Made by a program: the position numbers and the translations under genes. The notes under the pieces were generated by a model that worked only from the letters and a program-made list of their open reading frames with translations, had not been told where the DNA came from and ran no database searches. Below, in pieces: positions 2,184 to 35,733 of a DNA stretch of 35,783 bases; the first letter of the stretch is position 1, and the number at the start of each line of letters is the position of its first letter. Source of the stretch: a virus; UHGV virus genome UHGV-0117379; one strand, given 5' to 3'.

Positions 2184-2840
2184 CTATTTAACATACTTGA
2201 CTGTTAAACTTATAATTTTACCAATTATTTCAATGTCTTCTATCTTGCATTCGAAGGCTCTGTTTCCACCCTCGACGAAGATTCTTCCACCGGGTAAACG
2301 AGTAATGTCACGGATCGTTATTTCGCCATCAATACTTATTACCCATTTACCATCACGTATATCATCAAATTCTTTATCACAAATAAATTCAGAATTGTTA
2401 TCTGTGATGACAAAAGGTTTTTTAAACGTAGAGGGTAGAAATCCCTTATCAAAAATATAAAAACCGTCTTTCTGCAATGCTCCATCAGACAATAAATATT
2501 TTTCTACTTCTATAGTATTTGTATTTGCTGATGCTTGCTTTGAACCATGCCCTGTTGTTAGCCAATTAAGCGAGGTGCCCGTTTCAAGGGCGCACTGGAT
2601 TACCCAATCTGCTGGAAAAATATCACGCATATAGCGCGTTGCCATGGTGCTCTTAGAAACACCTAAATGATCACAGAGAGCCTGACGAGTACCGAACCCA
2701 TATGCTTCAACTAAACGTTCTATGGCTTTCTTACCGCCGCTATTGAAATCCACAAGTCCTCCAAAGAAATCCAAAATTCGTTGACAGATTCCAAAAGCGA
2801 TCTTAAAGTTGAACCAGAAGTGTTCTTTTGGAGCCTTCAC
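2184..2840 (-). CDS. cI: Phage CI-type repressor (186 CI-like, HTH N-terminal domain)
   Basis: HTH-like segment LGVSKSTMATRYMRD; position and orientation match the P2/186 immunity repressor, divergent from apl. The ORF starts at GTG 2840; true start uncertain. Confidence 0.7.
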   Translation of the reverse strand: MKAPKEHFWFNFKIAFGICQRILDFFGGLVDFNSGGKKAIERLVEAYGFGTRQALCDHLGVSKSTMATRYMRDIFPADWVIQCALETGTSLNWLTTGHGSKQASANTNTIEVEKYLLSDGALQKDGFYIFDKGFLPSTFKKPFVITDNNSEFICDKEFDDIRDGKWVISIDGEITIRDITRLPGGRIFVEGGNRAFECKIEDIEIIGKIISLTVKYVK

Positions 2841-2898: not shown

Positions 2899-3102
2899 AT
2901 GACACCTAACATTTCAATTACTCTGAATACACCACATGTCACAATCGAACGTTATAGCGAACTGACTGGCCTTTCTATTGATACGATTAACGACATGTTG
3001 GCTGATGGCCGACTACCTCGTCATCGTCTTCGTAAAGACAAAAAACGTGAAAAGGTAATGATTAACCTGGCTGCTCTGACTGTTGATGCTTTGTCTGCTT
3101 AA
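2899..3102 (+). CDS. apl: Apl/Cox-type excisionase / regulator
   Basis: 67-aa ORF with ATG 2899 and AAGGA RBS, first gene of the rightward early operon opposite cI. Confidence 0.7.
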
Positions 3103-3166
3103 TAGACGTCTATTTTCGCAATAAGACGCTGAGTTCGATTTTGCGATAAGTTCGGAGTTGAAAACC

Positions 3167-3683: not shown

Positions 3684-3980
3684 ATGCTGACGAAAGAACC
3701 ATCATTTGCATCGCTGCTGGTAAAACAAAGCCCGGCAATGCACTACGGTCACGGCTGGATCATGGGTGAGGATGGTAAACGCTGGCATCCGTGCCGTTCA
3801 CAAGATGAATTGCTGTCTGAATTGACCACGGGGAAACGGAGAAAGTCAAAATGTATGCAGCGGAAAGTGAAGTGGTTTATCAGTTTCGTTACAGAGGGGA
3901 GAGTTATTCAGTACCTGAAGATGATTTGCTCTGTTGTTATCCGTCGTTGTCGGGCGATGGCAGTTACTTTTTCACGCTAA
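3684..3980 (+). CDS. Hypothetical early protein
   Basis: ATG 3684 follows GAGGTG RBS directly after the cII stop. The second half of this frame is Cys/Arg-rich and low in complexity and overlaps ORF 3851..4075, so the 3' extent is uncertain. Confidence 0.4.
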   Translation: MLTKEPSFASLLVKQSPAMHYGHGWIMGEDGKRWHPCRSQDELLSELTTGKRRKSKCMQRKVKWFISFVTEGRVIQYLKMICSVVIRRCRAMAVTFSR

Positions 3981-9403: not shown

Positions 9404-9622
9404 ATGTCAAGTATCGCCGCATTGAAGCTGGGTAATCCAGTTGAACGTTTGGCACGGGTTCTGAAAGAGAACCAGGACAAGCTCAATCTGAGTAAAGATG
9501 GTTTTGTGTCCGTAGATTTGTCCAACGAAGAAGCTATGAAAGCCATCCGAGATCAGATGGATAAGCTTGAAGGCATCAAAACGAGCACTGTTAAAGCAAA
9601 ATATTATTACAGAACCCGATAA
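9404..9622 (+). CDS. Hypothetical small soluble protein (72 aa)
   Basis: ATG 9404 with AAGGAGGGG RBS; stop overlaps the next start (TAATG). Confidence 0.6.
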   Translation: MSSIAALKLGNPVERLARVLKENQDKLNLSKDGFVSVDLSNEEAMKAIRDQMDKLEGIKTSTVKAKYYYRTR

Positions 9623-10464
9623 TGGCAACATTACTTTTAGCAGTGATTTTGGTTAGTGGTTTTATATATGTAAACCTATCACTTTCAACACGTTATAGAT
9701 ATAAGCGTTCCAATGGCTGGGACGCTTATTTTTTTGTGGCTGCATGGGGAATTGTCTTTTTCCTCGCTGGCGGCTTCCTTACCTTCGCTCTTAACATCAG
9801 CGGTGGGTTTCGCTGGTTTTCTAATGCGCTGAATCTGACTCCAGACAGCTTTAACGGGATGTTATCCACCACAACCGATAAACCGCAGCGCATCAATGAA
9901 ATTAAGCAAATCGCGTGGGTTGTGATTTCAATAGTTCTCGCGGCGCTGTTCGGTTGGCTAAACAAACGCCGTACTTCAAAAGGGGATCGCCGTTGGGATG
10001 CACTGGCAAAGGCAGTGGGAAACAATGCTTTTGAATCGCTGCTCATGGAAGCATCAGCTCGCCAGTTTCCTATCATTGCTACACTTTCATCACGCAAAAT
10101 CTATGTAGGGCTGGTGACTTGCCCTGCGTTGGAAAATGGATTGTCGGAACACCTTGAAATTCTCCCCTTGCTGAGCGGATATCGTGATAAAGACGACCTA
10201 ACGATAAATATCACGACAAACTATCATCAGCACTATCTTGATAGCGGTGTTATCAATGGGATGTCGCGCCTGAATATCCAGGATTTCCGTGTGCTTCTCC
10301 CTAAAGATGAAGTTGAAACCATCTCGTTTTTTGATACTGAAACGTATAACAAATTTAAAGAAAACGAAGCGCGTGACCGGAAAGACTGCCGCAAGTTGGG
10401 TGGTAAAAAGCCATCCGCACGCAGGAGAAAGACTGCTGGCGACGCAGAGCAGGGTAGTGCATGA
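9622..10464 (+). CDS. Membrane protein with three predicted N-terminal TM helices, unknown function
   Basis: Hydrophobic segments LLLAVILVSGFIYV, AYFFVAAWGIVFFLAGGFLTFAL and IAWVVISIVLAALFGWL, then a roughly 170-aa soluble domain; AT-rich. Confidence 0.65.
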   Translation: MATLLLAVILVSGFIYVNLSLSTRYRYKRSNGWDAYFFVAAWGIVFFLAGGFLTFALNISGGFRWFSNALNLTPDSFNGMLSTTTDKPQRINEIKQIAWVVISIVLAALFGWLNKRRTSKGDRRWDALAKAVGNNAFESLLMEASARQFPIIATLSSRKIYVGLVTCPALENGLSEHLEILPLLSGYRDKDDLTINITTNYHQHYLDSGVINGMSRLNIQDFRVLLPKDEVETISFFDTETYNKFKENEARDRKDCRKLGGKKPSARRRKTAGDAEQGSA

Positions 10465-10512
10465 CTATGCTGCATGAATTTGCATGATCGTTTGAGGATC
10501 GTTTTAGCTCCG

Positions 10513-10537
10513 GCCCGCCAGTTCAGGCGGGCTTTTT
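10513..10537 (+). terminator. Rho-independent terminator (GCCCGC-loop-GCGGGC followed by TTTTT)
   Basis: Read directly: stem 10513-10518/10527-10532, T-run 10533-10537, about 50 nt after the membrane-protein stop. Confidence 0.6.
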
Positions 10538-10581
10538 CATATCTCATGCAGGTGCATGAAAACCACTACACAAAGCGGGCA

Positions 10582-10600
10582 GGCGTGGCGGGGATACGAG
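10582..10600. other. Putative cos cohesive-end sequence GGCGTGGCGGGGATACGAG
   Basis: First 13 nt identical to the P2/186 cohesive-end consensus GGCG(A/T)GGCGGGGAAAGCA as I remember it (15/19 to 186). Preceded by five copies of TGCATGA. Confidence 0.4.
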
Positions 10601-10665
10601 CGCGCGCTCATTACTTTTATAATTCTAGGGTTATAATACAGGGCTATCTTTCTAGGAGAAAACAC

Positions 10666-12318
10666 ATGTCCTTAGAGTTTATCAAAGAACAGTTGTCAGA
10701 TTTTATCTCATCTACAGAACCAGAAGTAATGGCTATACAGGGTGAATGGGGAATTGGTAAAACCTATACTTGGAATACGTTCCTAAAAGATAATAAAGAT
10801 AAGGTTGCATTTAATAGATATAGTTATGTCTCTCTTTTTGGTATAAATTCACTAGATTCTTTAAAGTATTCTATTTTTGAGAATGCAATTACAAAGGAAT
10901 ATATTGGAAATAAACCTGATTTGGAGACAGCAACAACAAACGCAAGTGGACTTTTTGAATCGTTTTCTCGAAAAGCCGCAGGTTTGTTAAAAGAAGCTCC
11001 TGTTGTAAAAAACTTCTCTACGACACTTGAAGCAATGTCATTTCTGACCGTTTCTAAAATGATTGTAGTAATAGATGACTTAGAAAGGCGTGGCAAAAAC
11101 TTAGATGTTAAAGATGTTTTAGGGCTAGTATCTCTATTAAAGGAGCAGAAGGATTGTAAGGTGGTTCTATTGCTTAACAATGGCACAGCTAGTATGGAGG
11201 ATTATTCTACTTATAAAGAAAAGGTCATTGATAGAGATATCACTTACAATCCAACACCAGAAGAATGCGCAGATATAGCCTATAAAGGTGATTTTCATGT
11301 TTATAACTTGTTAAGTAAATATTCCATTTCTTTAGGTATCAAGAATATTCGAATCTTAAAAAAGATAGAACGTTTTTTCGTGTCCTTAACACCAAATATT
11401 ATAGGTGATGTTGAGACAATTTCAAATGAAGTTGCGCATTCATTAACTCTGTATTGTTGGAGCCATTACGGATTTTCTCCAGAGGGAGATGTGCCATCAC
11501 TAGAATATATTAGGGGAGTGAGGAATATATATACTTATAATGACAAGGAAGAAGGCCATGAGAAAGTCTGGCTTAATACCTTGCTTAAATATGGATATAG
11601 AAAAACGAATGATCTTGATGAGGTTCTTATTGATATGGTTAGATATGGCTATCTTGATAAGAGCAGTTTCCAAAGACAAATAAGCCTAAGGAATGAGGAG
11701 ATTACGCGTGATAATAAACGAGGTTCCTTATCTGAGGCATGGCAGTTCTTTCATAATTCATTTGATGACAATCAAAATCAGGTTGTTGACAAGCTATATC
11801 AAGCGGTGGTTGATGGGATGAAGTATGTGACTCCAAGTGATTTAGATAATGTTGTCGGACTATATAGGGATTTCGGAGAGAATGCTAAGGCGAGTGAATT
11901 GATTGAACAGTTTATTAATTATGGTAACGATGCTCTAAAGGAATATGTTCAATCTATTTATGTGAATGTTCATCCCGTAAGAGATGCTGAGTTGTTGTCA
12001 AAAATTCAAGCCTATTCTAATATTATAAATATTGATGGTTCAATATATGATGTTCTTAAGAAATTATCAGGTCAGAATGGTTGGTCTGATAGACATGAGG
12101 AAATATTGGATGCTGCTTCAGTAGATGACTACTATCAATTATTTAAAAATGTCATTCTTGATGGTGGTGATTCAATAATAGCTACGGCGCTTAAATTCGG
12201 AAATTATAGTAATGGTTCTGATAGAATGAATCGTATAGGGAAAAAGGCAAGGGATGCCTTGATAAGAATTGGAGATGAATCGGCGATTAATAAAATACGT
12301 GTAAGGCGATTTTTGTGA
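10666..12318 (+). CDS. KAP-family P-loop NTPase (candidate defence cargo)
   Basis: ATG 10666 with AGGAG RBS (track ORF starts at 10474). Walker A GEWGIGKT and KAP-type Walker B VVIDDLERR; AT-rich; own TATAAT boxes (10618-10623, 10632-10637) and a downstream terminator. Confidence 0.75.
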   Translation: MSLEFIKEQLSDFISSTEPEVMAIQGEWGIGKTYTWNTFLKDNKDKVAFNRYSYVSLFGINSLDSLKYSIFENAITKEYIGNKPDLETATTNASGLFESFSRKAAGLLKEAPVVKNFSTTLEAMSFLTVSKMIVVIDDLERRGKNLDVKDVLGLVSLLKEQKDCKVVLLLNNGTASMEDYSTYKEKVIDRDITYNPTPEECADIAYKGDFHVYNLLSKYSISLGIKNIRILKKIERFFVSLTPNIIGDVETISNEVAHSLTLYCWSHYGFSPEGDVPSLEYIRGVRNIYTYNDKEEGHEKVWLNTLLKYGYRKTNDLDEVLIDMVRYGYLDKSSFQRQISLRNEEITRDNKRGSLSEAWQFFHNSFDDNQNQVVDKLYQAVVDGMKYVTPSDLDNVVGLYRDFGENAKASELIEQFINYGNDALKEYVQSIYVNVHPVRDAELLSKIQAYSNIINIDGSIYDVLKKLSGQNGWSDRHEEILDAASVDDYYQLFKNVILDGGDSIIATALKFGNYSNGSDRMNRIGKKARDALIRIGDESAINKIRVRRFL

Positions 12319-12348: not shown

Positions 12349-13377
12349 CTAATTTAATGAGTAATCATTAAATGCTATGATTTTTTCATTTAGCCAAGTA
12401 TTAATTTCTATAAGCCTTTTTTGTAACGGAATTAATTCATTTCGGACAAAGACTTTACTAGCCTTTTCCACATCCCCAAACCCCCCAACATTATTCGGCA
12501 TTATCCCCATCATTTGCGGCGGCACGCGGTGTGCCGCCATCATGTCGTCCCGGCTCACGTTCTTAATATTCAAAAACTCATCCTTCGCTGCGACCTCTGA
12601 CAACGGGATAATCTGAAGCCCGTCCTTTTTGCCGTTAGGCGAGTACATAAACAGGTTGCGGAAGTTGCCCGGACCTTTGGCGCTTTTCATCGCATTGCGG
12701 AGGTTGTTCACATCTTCCTGGTTCTGCGCGGCATCGGTCATGTACATGATGAAGCCTGCATGACTGCCGTTAATGTAATACTTCCGGCGGAACAGCGTGG
12801 CGGACTCGTTGAGCAGGGCTGACGGAATGGCAGAAAGATAACCTGGCAGGCCGTAGATCTCCTGGTTGATGTCCGGTTCCATCAGATGAAAAATGCTGCC
12901 TTTCGTGAACTGATACTGCTGGGTTGTAATACCATATTGCACAAACCAGTAGGTATCCAGGTCTAATCCGCGTCGGGTGTATTTTGCCAGCGCAGGTTCA
13001 AGGGCGATAACTTCACCGAAGCGGTTCGTGCGTTTCTCCAGGTAGGCGTTACCAAATACCAGATAGTCCTGCACAAAACGTGAAAAAGCCTGCTGGCTGA
13101 GCAGCGGGTGAGGGATATAGGTGCTGGTCAGAATATTGCACTTTACTGCAATCGGTGAGCTGTGATGCACGGCGGCGCGGAAGGCTCGCGCCAGTCCGTC
13201 AAAACTCACTGGCGGCTCATACCAGCGATCTGTCTGTACGCATTCCACATAGTCCAGTCGTTCGCGGCGATCCAGTACTGGAATGGGATCGCCGAAGCTG
13301 AATGCTTCGGCTGAAGTCTGGCTTTTATGCTGGGTCTGGTTCTGCGACGCAGCGCGGTTCTTCTTACTCTTTCCCAT
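12349..13377 (-). CDS. Q: Portal protein (P2 gpQ-like)
   Basis: 342 aa from ATG 13377 (track ORF begins at a TTG one codon earlier); size and position match P2 Q; start overlaps the P stop. Confidence 0.85.
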   Translation of the reverse strand: MGKSKKNRAASQNQTQHKSQTSAEAFSFGDPIPVLDRRERLDYVECVQTDRWYEPPVSFDGLARAFRAAVHHSSPIAVKCNILTSTYIPHPLLSQQAFSRFVQDYLVFGNAYLEKRTNRFGEVIALEPALAKYTRRGLDLDTYWFVQYGITTQQYQFTKGSIFHLMEPDINQEIYGLPGYLSAIPSALLNESATLFRRKYYINGSHAGFIMYMTDAAQNQEDVNNLRNAMKSAKGPGNFRNLFMYSPNGKKDGLQIIPLSEVAAKDEFLNIKNVSRDDMMAAHRVPPQMMGIMPNNVGGFGDVEKASKVFVRNELIPLQKRLIEINTWLNEKIIAFNDYSLN

Positions 13378-15143
13378 CAAAAAATCTCCACAATATTACT
13401 GGTATTGGCGGACTCGCCCTGCAGTGGTTCGTTAAACAGTGCGTGCATTGTTGCCCACGCCAGATCGGCGTGGCTGGTTTCTTCGCTGCGGCTGGCTTCA
13501 TACGTCGGGCGGTTGCCACTGGCGGTGGTGGCGCGACGGATTGCCATGAATGACTGCGCAATGTCGGTGTGCCCGGCGTCAAACTCCAGACGGCGGTGGC
13601 TGATAATGTCGTAGGCCTTGAGTACCAGAGCGTTTTTAACGTTGGGGTTGTAGACAAACTCCCGGACGGCAGGAAAAAACGCTTTCACGTTCTCGTAAAC
13701 CCCGTGACCGACGCCGGTTGAGTCGATACCGATGTATGTCACGTTGTACTGTTCAGTCAGTTTTTTGATGGCGTCAGCCTGGGCGCGGAAGTCCATCCCG
13801 CGCCACTGGTGACGCTCAAGAATGCGGAACTTACCGCCCGGCACGGCTGGCGGTGCCACCACCACGCACCCGGCGCTGTCGCCGTTTTGCGTACCTTTTG
13901 CCGGGTCATAACCGATCCACACTTCGCGCCAGCCAAACGGGCGCAGGGCCAGTGCATGAAAGTCGGTCCAGACTTCCCAGCTGTCCACCATGCACGCCTG
14001 CAGCTCGCTGAGCGGAAACACGGACGCGAGATCGTCCACAAACTCGCACATCAGCAGGTTCTGGTATTCGTCCGGGCTGTACTCCATGCGCAACTGGTCG
14101 AGATCGAACAGGTTACATCCGCCGCGCACAGCATCTTCCACGGTGACTATCTGGCGGTATTGCCCGTCTGCGCACAGCAGGCCGGGGGCCAGATTGCTGT
14201 GGGACAGGTCGATGTCCACCTTATCGGCTTTGTTGCGCCCACGGTTGAACAGCGCACCGGACCAGAACGGATAAGCACTGTGTGTCAGGCTGGATGGTGT
14301 GGAAAAATAGGTTTGTCGCCATTTTTTGTGAATAGCCATACCGGAAGCCACTTTGCGCAGCTCCTGGAATTTCGGTATCCAGAAATATTCATCCAGATAC
14401 AGGTTGCCGTGGTAACTCTGGGCCGTGCGGGCATTGGTGCCGAGGAAGTAAAGCGTAGCCCCGTTAGGAAGCACCATCGGATCGCCTTTCAGCTCCACTT
14501 CCACTTCTTTGGCGAAGTCGATGATGTACTGTTTAAAGACGTGGGCCTGTGCCTTACTGGCGGAAAGGAAAATCTGGTTACGTCCGGTAAGCAGGGCGTC
14601 AATCAGGGCTTCACGGGCAAAGTAAAAGGTCGCGCCGATCTGGCGTGACTTCAGCAGGTTGCGGATGCGGTTGGTTTTTCCGGCTTCCCACCAGTGGCGC
14701 TGGTAGTTGAACATGGAGGAATGGAAGATTTCTTCCAGCTTCGCAATCTGTTCATCGGTGAAAACGTTCTTTTCCGGCTGACGACGCGGGCCTTTGTTGC
14801 GGTTGGCGACGTTAGGGTTTAAGTCGGCTTCGTTGCCGCCATTGTTAAACTTGCCGATCCGCGCGTGGCGCTCCGACTGGCGCGCCAGCAGGTCAATCTC
14901 TTTGAAATCTTTCCCTTCTTTGTGCTCCTTCATGATGAGCTGGCAGTAGCGTGCGGCGGTGGTGAGCTGCATCTGATCCAGCGGCCCATAGTCACCCCAC
15001 TTGTCGCGTTTCTTCCAGCTGTGAACGGTTGCAACTTTCTCGCCCAGCATTTCAGCAATGCGGGCTACGCGATATCCCTGAAAGTACAGCAGCATGGCCT
15101 GCCGACGGGGATCGAGATCTGCGGATGTCAGTGTGGTGTTCAT
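13377..15143 (-). CDS. P: Terminase large (ATPase) subunit (P2 gpP-like)
   Basis: 588 aa, ATG 15143; immediately upstream of Q on the same strand and divergent from the O operon, as in P2. Confidence 0.85.
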   Translation of the reverse strand: MNTTLTSADLDPRRQAMLLYFQGYRVARIAEMLGEKVATVHSWKKRDKWGDYGPLDQMQLTTAARYCQLIMKEHKEGKDFKEIDLLARQSERHARIGKFNNGGNEADLNPNVANRNKGPRRQPEKNVFTDEQIAKLEEIFHSSMFNYQRHWWEAGKTNRIRNLLKSRQIGATFYFAREALIDALLTGRNQIFLSASKAQAHVFKQYIIDFAKEVEVELKGDPMVLPNGATLYFLGTNARTAQSYHGNLYLDEYFWIPKFQELRKVASGMAIHKKWRQTYFSTPSSLTHSAYPFWSGALFNRGRNKADKVDIDLSHSNLAPGLLCADGQYRQIVTVEDAVRGGCNLFDLDQLRMEYSPDEYQNLLMCEFVDDLASVFPLSELQACMVDSWEVWTDFHALALRPFGWREVWIGYDPAKGTQNGDSAGCVVVAPPAVPGGKFRILERHQWRGMDFRAQADAIKKLTEQYNVTYIGIDSTGVGHGVYENVKAFFPAVREFVYNPNVKNALVLKAYDIISHRRLEFDAGHTDIAQSFMAIRRATTASGNRPTYEASRSEETSHADLAWATMHALFNEPLQGESANTSNIVEIF

Positions 15144-15189
15144 GGCACAAACCTACAGCCTTGAATGAAGGCTTTCCCCGCCTGCGGTT

Positions 15190-15207
15190 TGTGTGGTTGT
15201 CGGTACA
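15190..15207. promoter_or_regulatory. Ogr-type late-promoter dyad TGT-N12-ACA in the P/O divergent region
   Basis: TGTgtggttgtcggtACA read directly; centre about 87 bp upstream of the O start codon. Confidence 0.5.
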
Positions 15208-15285
15208 AATACCGCGCATTGTTTCACTGCCCTCATCACCGCAACCATAAGGCTCCAGTAAGTTTTTTCTAACGGAGCACGGCTC

Positions 15286-16119
15286 ATGACAGTGAAAGCA
15301 AAGCGTTTTCGCATCGGGGTGGAAGGTGCCACCACCGACGGACGCGAAATCCAGCGTGAATGGCTGGAACAGATGGCAGCCAGCTACAACCCGGCAGTGT
15401 ATACCGCGCTGATTAACCTTGAGCACATCAAGTCTTATCTGCCGGACAGCACCTTTAACCGCTACGGCAAGGTAACGGCGCTGTTTGCTGAAGAAATCAC
15501 GGAAGGTCCGCTGGCAGGCAAGATGGCGCTGTATGCCGACGTTGAGCCAACGGAGTCCCTGGTGGAGCTGGTGAAAAAAGGCCAGAAATTATTCACTTCT
15601 ATGGAAGTCAGCCCGAAGTTCGCTGATACGGGCAAAGCCTACCTGGTTGGCCTGGCTGCCACTGATGATCCAGCCAGTCTGGGTACGGAAATGCTGACAT
15701 TCAGCGCCAGTGCAGCCCATAACCCGCTGGCAAACCGCAAGCAGAATCCCGCCAATCTCTTTACCGCCGCAGAGGAAACGGTGATCGAACTGGAAGAAAT
15801 CCAGGAGGACAAGCCGTCCCTGTTTGCCCGCGTCACGGCGCTGTTCACCAAAAAAGAGCAGTCCGACGATGCCCGGTTCTCTGATGTGCATAAGGCCGTG
15901 GAGCTGGTCGCCACTGAGCAGCAAAACCTGAGCGCACGCACCGAAAAATCCCTGTCTGAGCAGGAAGAACGCCTGTCTGAGCTGGAGACAGCCCTGCAGG
16001 CACAACAGGCCGCCTTTAACGAACTGGTGGACAAGCTGAGCCATGAGGACTGCCGCCAGGACTACCGCCAGCGTGCAACAGGCGGCAACGCCCCCGCTGA
16101 CACTCTGACCAATTGCTGA
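15286..16119 (+). CDS. O: Capsid scaffolding protein (P2 gpO-like)
   Basis: 277 aa, ATG 15286 with GGAG RBS; position and size match P2 O. Confidence 0.8.
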   Translation: MTVKAKRFRIGVEGATTDGREIQREWLEQMAASYNPAVYTALINLEHIKSYLPDSTFNRYGKVTALFAEEITEGPLAGKMALYADVEPTESLVELVKKGQKLFTSMEVSPKFADTGKAYLVGLAATDDPASLGTEMLTFSASAAHNPLANRKQNPANLFTAAEETVIELEEIQEDKPSLFARVTALFTKKEQSDDARFSDVHKAVELVATEQQNLSARTEKSLSEQEERLSELETALQAQQAAFNELVDKLSHEDCRQDYRQRATGGNAPADTLTNC

Positions 16120-20732: not shown

Positions 20733-20782
20733 GTTTATTTTACTTCAATGAAAATATAAAATCTGCTATATATAAAAACATT

Positions 20783-20791
20783 TGTTATAAT
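20783..20791 (+). promoter_or_regulatory. Extended -10 element TGTTATAAT for the moron NTPase gene
   Basis: TG-N-TATAAT read directly, about 30 bp upstream of ATG 20820; weak -35. Confidence 0.45.
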
Positions 20792-20819
20792 GATATGATT
20801 TTCTTAAGGATAGGATGTT

Positions 20820-22331
20820 ATGCGCCCCAAAATTGGTGATTTTGAATTTGGTGAGGTTTATGGAGAGAATGAGGTATTATTTCTCGATAATTACTCGAAA
20901 TATTTTTATGATATAAATAATTCATTAAGTAAACTTGATAGAAAAAATAAAATGCTCGTAATTGGCAGGAAGGGGACGGGTAAGACATTGCTTGTTAATG
21001 TCTACTGTAACGCCAAGCGAAAAAATAATTATATTGCAGTTGTGGAATCATTAAAAGATTTTGTTTTTCATGAACTTACTCACTTTCAGGGGCAGGATGT
21101 GTCTTCCACAAAATATGTACCAATTTTCAAGTGGATGATATTGGTCAATCTTGCTAAGAATATTGTAAGTAATAAAAAAGGATTTAGTGAGGATAAAATA
21201 GTTCATTTGGAAAGTTTTTTACGTTCTTTTGGCCATGTCGCGGGCGAGTTAAGGCCTGAGCAAACAGTTGAAATAACTAGGGAGTACCAAGCGTCGGGTG
21301 AGGTTGGTATCGGATTTAGATTCCCAGTATTACGTGGTGAAGCCAAAGCAAAAGATGGTGAGGTCGAGAAAACAAAAGAAACAAAAAAGAATTATTTGGA
21401 ATGTATGGAATCTTTGCAGTGTTTTATTGTTGACATGCTAAAAGAGAGTAATAAAAAAATATATGTATTTTATGATGAGTTAGATGATAAGTTTGATGCA
21501 ACAGTTGAATATAAAAATGCAATGATAAGTTTTTTAAATGCTGTTGTGTCAATTAATAAAACTCTAATGCAAAATAAAATAGATGCTAAAATTGGTGCAG
21601 TTATTCGTCATGATATAATAAATACTTTTTCATCGCCGAATATTAATAAAATCATTGAAGATAACTCTGTTACACTTGATTGGTGTTCTGCTGGAGAACG
21701 AGCAAGTGATTCTGAGATTTTTGATATGATTGCTTTTAAGATCAAAAACTCCACTGATTATTATAATGATTTAAATGGTTCTAATTTGTTCGGGAAAATT
21801 TTCACTGAGAGAGTTGCAGGTGAGCATAGCTCTATTTATATTTTACATAGAACTCTAGGTCGCCCAAGAGATGCCGTTAGGATGCTAACTTATATTCAAG
21901 ATGAATATGGAGAAAATACTGAAAGATTTGAAAGTTCCATGTTTACAAAGATTTCTAAAAAATACTCATCTTATCTTTTACGTGAAATTAGATCTGAGCT
22001 TGCGGGACATTTAAGTGATTCAGAAATAGATGACAGTTTTTCTCTTTTACGTTCAGTAAAAAAAAGAGGTTTCACTCCACATTTAATCAAGGAAAAATTT
22101 GAAGAATTGAAGTTAGGAGATGGTACATTAACGCTTAATAAAATACTGAGTTGTTTATTTAAAGTCGGTGCTATCGGGAATGTACTCAGGAGATCTAAAA
22201 CAGATGGCGGAGATGTTTATTTGTGGTCATTTAATGATGAAGATTTAGAAATGGACCCAACGTTGAATTTTGAAATACACTGTGGTTTGTGGGATGCACT
22301 AGGAATTATCAAGCCTAAACTTAGGCAATAA
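20820..22331 (+). CDS. P-loop NTPase (503 aa), candidate single-gene defence moron
   Basis: Walker A GRKGTGKT and Walker B IYVFYDELDD; AT-rich; own promoter and a perfect terminator; inserted between S and V. Confidence 0.8.
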   Translation: MRPKIGDFEFGEVYGENEVLFLDNYSKYFYDINNSLSKLDRKNKMLVIGRKGTGKTLLVNVYCNAKRKNNYIAVVESLKDFVFHELTHFQGQDVSSTKYVPIFKWMILVNLAKNIVSNKKGFSEDKIVHLESFLRSFGHVAGELRPEQTVEITREYQASGEVGIGFRFPVLRGEAKAKDGEVEKTKETKKNYLECMESLQCFIVDMLKESNKKIYVFYDELDDKFDATVEYKNAMISFLNAVVSINKTLMQNKIDAKIGAVIRHDIINTFSSPNINKIIEDNSVTLDWCSAGERASDSEIFDMIAFKIKNSTDYYNDLNGSNLFGKIFTERVAGEHSSIYILHRTLGRPRDAVRMLTYIQDEYGENTERFESSMFTKISKKYSSYLLREIRSELAGHLSDSEIDDSFSLLRSVKKRGFTPHLIKEKFEELKLGDGTLTLNKILSCLFKVGAIGNVLRRSKTDGGDVYLWSFNDEDLEMDPTLNFEIHCGLWDALGIIKPKLRQ

Positions 22332-22332
22332 T

Positions 22333-22359
22333 AAAAACGCCCTTTAATAGGGCGTTTTT
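22333..22359 (+). terminator. Rho-independent terminator, perfect 11-bp stem AAAAACGCCCT/AGGGCGTTTTT
   Basis: Read directly; 5-nt loop TTAAT; begins 2 nt after the moron stop codon. Confidence 0.75.
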
Positions 22360-22393
22360 ATTTAAAGTTGTCATTCTTTCTTTAAATTATCAT

Positions 22394-22411
22394 TGTGCCA
22401 AATCTCTTACA
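22394..22411. promoter_or_regulatory. Ogr-type late-promoter dyad TGT-N12-ACA upstream of V
   Basis: TGTgccaaatctcttACA read directly; its centre is about 55 bp from the V ATG, which is tight for a -55 element. Confidence 0.4.
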
Positions 22412-22457
22412 ATTCTAAATAGATGAATTAGTCTTTGTTCTGTTTGATAATTTGGAA

Positions 22458-27822: not shown

Positions 27823-27877
27823 TGCAGAGGTAACAGCTAACTGGCATCATCTCCGGTTTTTATTCAGGGGGATGATC

Positions 27878-28444
27878 ATGCTTATTGGCTATGTACGCGT
27901 GTCAACAAATGACCAGAACACCGATTTGCAACGTAATGCACTGAACTGCGCGGGATGTGAGCGGATTTTTGAGGACAAAATCAGTGGCACTAAGTCCGAC
28001 AGACCGGGGCTGAAAAAACTACTCAGGACACTATCGGCAGGAGACACGCTGGTTGTCTGGAAGCTGGACAGGTTGGGGCGCAGTATGCGGCATCTTGTTA
28101 CGCTGATAGAAGAGTTGCGCCAGCGTGGTGTGAATTTCAGAAGCCTGACTGACAGTATTGATACCAGTACCCCAATGGGCCGTTTCTTTTTTCATGTCAT
28201 GGGTGCCCTAGCTGAAATGGAACGCGAACTGATAGTTGAACGTACCAGGGCGGGGCTGGCTGCAGCTCGTGATAAAGGCAGAGTAGGTGGACGCCGTCCT
28301 AAGTTGACCACCGAACAGTGGGCACAGATTGGACGCTTACTCGAGGCCGGAGAATCAAGACAGCGTATTGCACTGATTTTTGATGTGGGTGTTTCCACAA
28401 TTTATAGAAAATTTCCGGCAAATAAGAGTAATGAATCCCCCTGA
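27878..28444 (+). CDS. Serine recombinase DNA invertase (Hin/Gin/Cin/Pin family)
   Basis: MLIGYVRVSTNDQNTDLQRNAL... is near-identical in pattern to the Gin/Hin N-terminus including the catalytic Ser region; ATG 27878 preferred over 27872 on RBS spacing. Confidence 0.9.
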   Translation: MLIGYVRVSTNDQNTDLQRNALNCAGCERIFEDKISGTKSDRPGLKKLLRTLSAGDTLVVWKLDRLGRSMRHLVTLIEELRQRGVNFRSLTDSIDTSTPMGRFFFHVMGALAEMERELIVERTRAGLAAARDKGRVGGRRPKLTTEQWAQIGRLLEAGESRQRIALIFDVGVSTIYRKFPANKSNESP

Positions 28445-28492: not shown

Positions 28493-28510
28493 TGTGTGAA
28501 TAACGACACA
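28493..28510. promoter_or_regulatory. Ogr-type late-promoter dyad TGT-N12-ACA upstream of FI
   Basis: TGTgtgaataacgacACA read directly; centre about 85 bp upstream of the FI ATG. Confidence 0.5.
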
Positions 28511-28586
28511 ACTGCGCTTAGCTGTTTGTCAGGCACAATCACTTCAACATAGGGCGAAGCCTAATCCAATCAGGAGGTTCGCCACT

Positions 28587-35514: not shown

Positions 35515-35733
35515 ATGATGATTTGCCCACTGTGTGGAAGTGCCGCCCATACTCGCAGCAGTTTTCAGGTATCTTCATTGACCAAAGAGCGTTACAACCA
35601 GTGCCAGAACATTAACTGCAGCCATACTTTTGTTACCCATGAAACTTTTGTTCGTTCGATTGCAACGCCAAAAGAGTCAAATCCGGTTCAGCCGCATCCA
35701 ATGAAATCAGGACAGGTGGCGCTCTCTCTTTGA
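35515..35733 (+). CDS. ogr: Ogr/Delta-family zinc-finger late-gene activator
   Basis: MMICPLCGSAAH...CQNINC matches the P2 Ogr CxxC...CxxC pattern; ATG 35515 follows GGGGAGA RBS (track ORF starts at GTG 35482). Confidence 0.8.
   Translation: MMICPLCGSAAHTRSSFQVSSLTKERYNQCQNINCSHTFVTHETFVRSIATPKESNPVQPHPMKSGQVALSL

Follow-up and report, generated by a model that had tools for sequence, protein, structure and literature searches.

A TGT-N12-ACA dyad between the divergent late genes P and O of a P2-like prophage as a probable shared Ogr-type activating site

How are the divergent late genes P and O of a P2-like prophage switched on, and does a single activator site serve both of them? The window examined here (UHGV-0117379; the whole stretch of viral DNA, 35,783 nucleotides) is a P2-like prophage, in which P, O, N, V, and FI as well as a gene for an Ogr_Delta zinc-finger protein were recognized by Pfam. 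Its P/O region is 100% identical to that of Klebsiella phage KP12 (1,001 bases compared) and 99.7 to 99.9% identical to that of dozens of K. pneumoniae prophages, after which the Salmonella Felsduovirus phages SEN8 and RE2010 are the nearest relatives. The gap of 142 bp between P (minus strand) and O (plus strand) holds, midway between both promoters, a perfect TGT-N12-ACA dyad (Table 1). This dyad had been pointed out in an earlier, sequence-only reading of the window, and an exact motif scan found it at the very same place. Full-text literature searches returned no study of the late promoters of Klebsiella or Felsduovirus phages, start-site, footprint, or reporter data for this phage or its close relatives were not found in the sources searched, and promoter annotation is missing from the related phage records that were examined.

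Ogr-family proteins bind a dyad near −55 and activate weak sigma-70 promoters via the C-terminal domain of the alpha subunit (alpha-CTD), as is known from P2, 186, and P4. The alpha-CTD contact reportedly shows in the rpoA109 phenotype (Christie, Calendar, Egan and colleagues). The Ogr homologue of the window is 51% identical to P2 Ogr across all 72 residues and is presumed to be the activator that reads the dyads. In P2, the four late promoters carry TGT-N12-ACA and require Ogr (PMC3931495). The P2 record (NC_001895) lists one activator binding site (3057-3087) for the "pO, pP promoters", with operon starts at 3016 for P (minus strand) and at 3127 for O; the site itself, TGTGTCAGTGATAAGCCA, is a TGT-N12-CCA sequence (centre 3071.5) located exactly 55.5 bp from each start. 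Likewise, the record of 186 (NC_001317) lists a B protein site (3798-3817) for the "activation of pV and p12" promoters. In the P2 record, position 10308 is both the start of the V operon and the first base of V itself, which makes V leaderless, and the review-like introduction of PMC4633059 names P2 as one of the few cases of leaderless mRNAs in E. coli, crediting Christie and Calendar 1985.

Table 1. Coordinates of the late-promoter features in the window; promoter elements and starts are predictions
Feature	Position	Strand	Description
TGT-N12-ACA dyad, TGTGTGGTTGTCGGTACA	15190..15207		Extended form TTGT-N12-ACAA 15189-15208; centre 15198.5; proposed Ogr site common to PP and PO
Gene P, terminase large subunit	13377..15143	−	First gene of leftward P-Q; Pfam Terminase_6N, Terminase_6C, Terminase_5
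Gene O, capsid scaffold/protease	15286..16119	+	First gene of rightward late operon; Pfam Phage_GPO, E = 7e-113
Predicted PP −10, TAGGTT	15150..15155	−	Putative; TATGTT in most relatives
Predicted PP start, A of P start codon	15143	−	55.5 bp from dyad centre
Predicted PO −35-like element, TTGTTT	15219..15224	+	17-18 bp upstream of −10-like element
Predicted PO −10, CAACCA or AACCAT	15242..15248	+	Same offset as P2 PO GAAACT
Predicted PO start	15254..15256	+	+55.5 to +57.5 from centre; geometry from P2 (55.5) and 186 (~56.5)
Second perfect TGT-N12-ACA, TGTGGTGTTCATGGCACA	15132-15149		Straddles P start codon; 58 bp left of 15190 site
Other perfect matches	9947, 15132, 29803, 31798		Three within coding DNA; 15132 overlaps P start codon
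PV dyad, TGTGCCAAATCTCTTACA	22394..22411		Centre 55.5 bp from V ATG 22458 (predicted leaderless start)
PV −10, GATAAT	22446-22451		−12 to −7 from A of V ATG
PF dyad, TGTGTGAATAACGACACA	28493..28510		FI ATG 28587
PF −35-like element, CTGTTT	28522-28527
PF −10, CAACAT	28545-28550
PF predicted start, A	28557		+55.5
PF Shine-Dalgarno (SD), AGGAGG	28572-28577
ogr homologue	35515..35733	+	72 aa, CX2CX22CX4C; Pfam Ogr_Delta, E = 6.7e-22

The conservation of the dyad was assessed across related prophages. A scan of IMG/VR with the O protein gave 80 loci that were all at least 99% identical and hence useless for this purpose; it was replaced by a scan with one genome per species and O-protein alignment, which yielded 80 prophage loci with 45 to 99% identity over the whole of O. 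The resulting alignment comprises 51 distinct P/O intergenic sequences, taken from 52 related prophage loci and the window. Each of them has one conserved dyad. Among the 54 closest loci, 52 carry a single perfect dyad, with precisely 55.5 bp between its centre and the A of the P ATG, and the distance from the centre to the O ATG varies between 81.5 and 100.5 bp. All 51 distinct sequences have the same dyad ends, TTGT and ACAA (2.0 bits), while the 12 bases between them occur in 27 forms with a mean of 1.03 bits, which does not exceed the 1.17 bits of the remaining intergenic region (51 sequences). Invariant ends combined with a drifting spacer are the signature of a dyad that is contacted by a protein and not of a hairpin or of a hitch-hiking sequence. 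Purifying selection is thus seen on the six TGT/ACA bases, all at 2.0 bits, and not on the spacer (51 sequences). The interior of the right half-site in the window deviates from the consensus of the group (GTCGGT versus ACCGC), and the affinity may therefore be lower than in the relatives.

The same pattern extends to the other late operons. The sequence-only reading had noted dyads upstream of V and FI as well, which are both present, and had counted three of three expected late-operon locations, a count that holds in the window and also in six other complete genomes (KP12, SEN8, RE2010, ST15-OXA48phi14.1, ST13-OXA48phi12.1, and ST258-KPC3phi16.1). In all seven, perfect dyads with differing spacers are found at P/O, V, and FI, and the distance from the dyad centre to the P ATG is always 55.5 bp. 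The corresponding distances to the other start codons are 55.5 to 57.5 bp for V, 78.5 to 85.5 bp for FI, and 85.5 to 94.5 bp for O.

A motif with six defined bases will also occur by chance, and the sequence-only reading had expected about nine random matches across the window. Dinucleotide-preserving shuffles of the window agree with this figure (9.61 ± 3.04), and 84 of 100 shuffles contain at least as many perfect matches as the seven that are seen; the window-wide count consequently carries no information. Placement does: the probability of a perfect dyad in the shuffled 130-bp upstream region is 0.024 for O, 0.035 for V, and 0.034 for FI, which gives a joint chance of 2.9e-5 for all three and substantiates the view that the three placements are improbable as coincidences. 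The evidence for the dyad is its position and its conservation, not the number of matches.

Of the four other perfect matches in the window, those at 15132 and 29803 are disrupted in the more distant alignable relatives, and those at 9947 and 31798 are alignable only to closer relatives, where they are retained. The match at 15132-15149 was weighed as a PP site of its own and rejected, as it overlaps the start codon of P, is on the wrong side for P, and does not survive in most relatives. Just 11 of the 54 closest loci (12 with the window) have it intact, and it is disrupted in SEN8 and RE2010 as well as in the three Klebsiella phages that are more distant; it is evidently a fortuitous match built partly from the first codons of P. 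An imperfect TGT-N12-ATC sequence at 15220-15237 was likewise turned down as a further PP site: its TTGT is more readily understood as the −35 element of PO, and the required position lacks a conserved −10 element.

On the leftward side, the window carries the hexamers GGGAAA and TAGGTT in the predicted PP. In the latter hexamer, T at −12, A at −11, and T at −7 are invariant (51 sequences), and it is the sole conserved −10-like element on the P side. When the window and P2 are both anchored on their dyad centres, TAGGTT is in register with TAGCCT of the P2 promoter PP. The A of the P start codon is the seventh base after the hexamer, which is the same spacing as that from TAGCCT to the mapped P2 start G3016. 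There is no in-frame start codon upstream of 15143, and tblastn similarity to the P protein of the window starts at residue 1 in the best 8 loci listed. A conserved block is further found at 15172-15179 (plus strand CTTTCCCC; consensus cTTTCc, with two nearly invariant T's) in the predicted −35 region of PP. Read on the P strand it is GGGAAA and unlike a −35 hexamer; it could be an extra contact for a protein or for the alpha-CTD.

A predicted transcription start that coincides with the start codon raises the question of how P would be translated. A conserved SD sequence upstream of P is absent (consensus CCGTATGTTTGTGCCATG), with most relatives having no SD-like sequence at all. The mean duplex energy with the anti-SD sequence is −3.8 kcal/mol upstream of P, where it is more variable, compared to −5.7 kcal/mol upstream of O. 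As the pairing on the P side is weaker yet not absent, the anti-SD test lends the leaderless reading no more than mild support. The fixed distance of 55.5 bp, the −10 element in register, the universal ATG, and the lack of a conserved SD sequence together predict a leaderless P mRNA. We consider it slightly more probable than the opposite that P is leaderless in the P2-like lineage of Enterobacterales that includes Felsduovirus and related genera; P would then be, after V, the second late gene without a leader.

In more distant prophages whose P/O spacers measure about 140 bp, from Serratia, Rahnella, Pectobacterium, and Yersinia, TAGCCT stands 7 to 8 nt before the P ATG, a leaderless-like arrangement. 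A leader of 23 to 28 nt with an SD sequence follows the same hexamer in P2/186-type prophages and in two Yersinia loci among the closest 54, and a hairpin in the P leader is found in the P2/186-type loci. This distribution suggests that leaderless terminase mRNAs may be widespread in P2-like prophages of Enterobacterales. Literature searches found no paper that describes a leaderless P in such prophages.

On the rightward side, the predicted PO consists of the hexamers TTGTTT and CAACCA. All 51 sequences share the TTGT at +20.5 to +23.5, counted from the dyad centre, and within the −10 region an A is found at +44.5 in all 51, an A at +45.5 in 48, and a T at +49.5 in 45. The −10 element is poor and can be read in two ways, which makes the start of PO uncertain by 1 to 3 bp. 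The predicted leader measures approximately 31 nt and contains the SD sequence GGAG (15274-15277). The two predicted starts, 15143 and ~15254, are 111 bp apart, as in P2 (3016 and 3127). A direct alignment of the P2 PO core (GCCGACATGTGACTCC) with the window (GCAACCATAAGGCTCC) was tried and discarded, as the comparison anchored on the dyad gives GAAACT (3115-3120) as the −10 element of P2 and G3127 as its start. Similarity between the right arms of P2 and the window is weak, and the start of PO was therefore placed by geometry and conservation within the group only. A consensus scan found no consensus sigma-70 promoter in 15050-15350, as is expected of activator-dependent promoters.

The promoter of FI repeats the layout of PO, with its CAACAT occupying the same offset as the −10 region of PO. 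The predicted promoter of V, with GATAAT just ahead of a start on the V ATG, agrees with the mapped leaderless V of P2. In the window, the 3′ end of S and the S-V spacer known from KP12 have given way to a foreign, AT-rich cassette, which supplies its own PV dyad. KP12 has a quite different perfect palindrome at PV (TGTATCAGCACTGATACA), also 55.5 bp from the V ATG. The motif and its distance are thus kept in two unrelated sequences, which is strong evidence of a function.

Taken together, the dyad between P and O is very probably an Ogr-family upstream activating sequence shared by the divergent promoters PP and PO, in a reading in which the dyads of V and FI act alike and P would be leaderless. 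The arrangement is the textbook one of P2 and 186 and no new sort of element. The sequence-only reading had positioned the dyad for the O-N-M-L operon. This part is borne out by the position equivalent to that in P2 and 186 and by the conservation; it was incomplete in that the site is, by geometry, shared with the leftward P-Q genes, which it almost certainly serves besides O. By the same geometry, three Ogr sites (P/O shared, V, and FI) would cover four late promoters. The sequence, placement, conservation, and geometry of the dyad and the presence of the activator gene were observed directly; from homology and geometry, we infer how the site may work. Ogr would bind at the dyad, about 55 bp upstream of each start and between two weak divergent sigma-70 promoters, and, by analogy with P2 and 186, the bound protein would recruit RNA polymerase through the alpha-CTD. 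Rightward transcription from PO, starting at about 15254-15256, would then deliver O-N-M-L and the lysis and tail-completion genes. Leftward transcription from PP, which would begin at the A of the P ATG, would deliver P-Q, with P being translated from a leaderless mRNA like gene V of P2. The dyads at V and FI would do the same job for their operons.

The most serious alternative is that the dyad activates PO only and that P-Q is transcribed from another start or element with a short leader, for example, from a start near 15157 in a class-II-like arrangement. Such a start could be served by the hexamer TTCATT (15169-15164), and a short leader would fit with the AGG located 9 to 11 nt upstream of the P ATG in the window, a weak candidate ribosome binding site, and with the moderate anti-SD complementarity upstream of P in some relatives (down to −7.8 kcal/mol). 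However, SD-like sequences are absent there in most relatives, and the stretch that would have to provide the alternative −10 element is among the least conserved parts of the P/O spacer, while the TA..T bases at −12, −11, and −7 are invariant. Furthermore, 52 of 54 loci keep the distance of 55.5 bp to the P ATG while the O side drifts, which is hard to explain unless the P ATG is constrained relative to the dyad. Since P2 and 186 also use one site for both promoters, we regard activation of PO alone as unlikely and the shared site as the preferred reading.

It is also conceivable that a different regulator recognizes the shared site in place of Ogr, for example, a global regulator of the host or a phage protein of the CI or Cox/Apl type. 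The TGTG...CACA ends superficially resemble CRP half-sites, and TGT-N12-ACA is also the consensus of PpsR/CrtJ in purple bacteria. The CRP site is TGTGA-N6-TCACA, with a spacing of 6 instead of the 12 of the dyad, and PpsR/CrtJ controls photosynthesis genes of purple bacteria and is, to our knowledge, not expected in Klebsiella. Moreover, the conserved sites occur only before late operons, at the positions annotated for Ogr and B in P2 and 186, and the cognate activator gene is present in the window; a different regulator is thus very improbable. A match without any regulatory role is less probable still. It is true that fewer matches are seen in the window than shuffling predicts and that a second, evidently fortuitous one lies just 58 bp off. 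Yet the eight end bases of the dyad are invariant over 51 distinct sequences despite 27 different spacers, its position is fixed, and the pattern recurs at V and FI in seven of seven genomes with the low joint positional probability given above. The comparative data exclude pure chance, and the Ogr-type site shared by PP and PO stands as the reading to be preferred.

Some of the neighbouring DNA deserves mention in its own right. The AT-rich cassette between the tail gene S and V spans 20733-22390 and is absent from KP12, and just one other phage record (Kp4865-2) has it. Its open reading frame (20820-22331, plus strand) encodes a protein of 503 aa that matches the NCBIfam model "P-loop ATPase, Sll1717 family" (1.2e-80) and, weakly, a model of an anti-phage protein (DS41_1); no Pfam or PADLOC match was found for it. 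An AT-rich stretch containing TATAAT precedes the reading frame and a terminator-like hairpin (~22334-22362) follows it. The cassette is a candidate defence moron, and the same position is occupied by orf30 in P2 and by an FRG-domain gene in SEN8. A second region of cargo (9622-12318) is flanked by the replication/DinI region and the portal gene Q, in the place where P2 has old and tin. The product of one reading frame (10474-12318, plus strand; 614 aa) contains a P-loop NTPase domain of the KAP family and matches the PADLOC candidate defence model PDC-S49 (5.7e-28), and no family match was found for its partner of 280 aa (9622-10464, plus strand). The stretch around 9947, as compared, is also present in Klebsiella phage ST15-OXA48phi14.1.

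The immunity repressor (2184-2840, minus strand) is of the 186 CI type (Phage_CI_repr and Phage_CI_C) and not of the P2 C type, so that ogr may be under direct control of CI, as is B in 186. Just upstream of PF and beside the tail-fibre genes, a DNA invertase of the Hin/Gin type (Resolvase and HTH_7) is encoded at 27872-28444 (plus strand). In the KP12 record, convergent tail-fibre assembly genes are annotated at this place. An invertase next to tail-fibre genes implies an invertible host-range segment.

For a prophage family that is very common in Klebsiella, Salmonella, and Escherichia, the analysis provides a map of late transcription with predicted starts. It also offers a simple, portable rule by which the late promoters of P2-like prophages can be located, namely TTGT-N12-ACAA at 55.5 bp from the P ATG and at 55.5 to 57.5 bp from the V ATG. 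If P is indeed leaderless, the lineage of the window and the P2/186 type, which has a leader, would form a natural pair for one essential gene. This would be of modest wider interest, as enterobacteria have few leaderless mRNAs, and these are poorly understood.

Related systems are known from satellites and from more distant phages. The delta-responsive promoters of P4 (Psid and PLL), Pag of PSP3, and delta of phiR73 belong to the Ogr_Delta family of systems, with TGT-N12-ACA near −55. The delta protein of P4 is a tandem duplication of the Ogr fold, and these are satellite or other helper elements, unlike the window. The TGT-N12-ACA consensus of delta-type systems is cited in PMC3931495. In the Ralstonia phages phiRSA1 and phiRSY1, TGTTGT-N13-ACAACA is found upstream of four late operons, 50 to 90 bp from the start codons and without a sigma-70 consensus promoter (PMC5694545). 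Those dyads differ from that of the window by their longer arms and their 13-bp spacer, and both the host and the phage lineage are distant.

The closest parallels are P2 and 186. P2 likewise has a single, partially dyad-symmetric site between the divergent genes P and O and two more sites upstream of V and FI, its V is leaderless, and its activator also has 72 aa with the CX2CX22CX4C arrangement. In contrast to the three perfect dyads of the window, P2 has imperfect sites (TGT-N12-CCA) at P/O and FI and, at V, no match within one mismatch; P of P2 has a leader of 23 nt with an SD sequence, whereas in the window the P ATG falls on the predicted start. DNA similarity between the two is below blastn detection, and identity over the first 150 residues of P and O amounts to about 55 to 58%. 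Phage 186 resembles the window in using one site for both divergent promoters (TGT-N12-CCA, ~55 to 57 bp from the promoter ends) and in its CI-type repressor; it differs in that its site is one mismatch from the consensus and in that orf12, the homologue of P, is preceded by a leader of some 23 nt (78.5 bp from the dyad centre to the ATG). What appears to set the window apart from P2 and 186 is thus the perfect consensus, the diverged DNA lineage, and a gene P that apparently has no leader.
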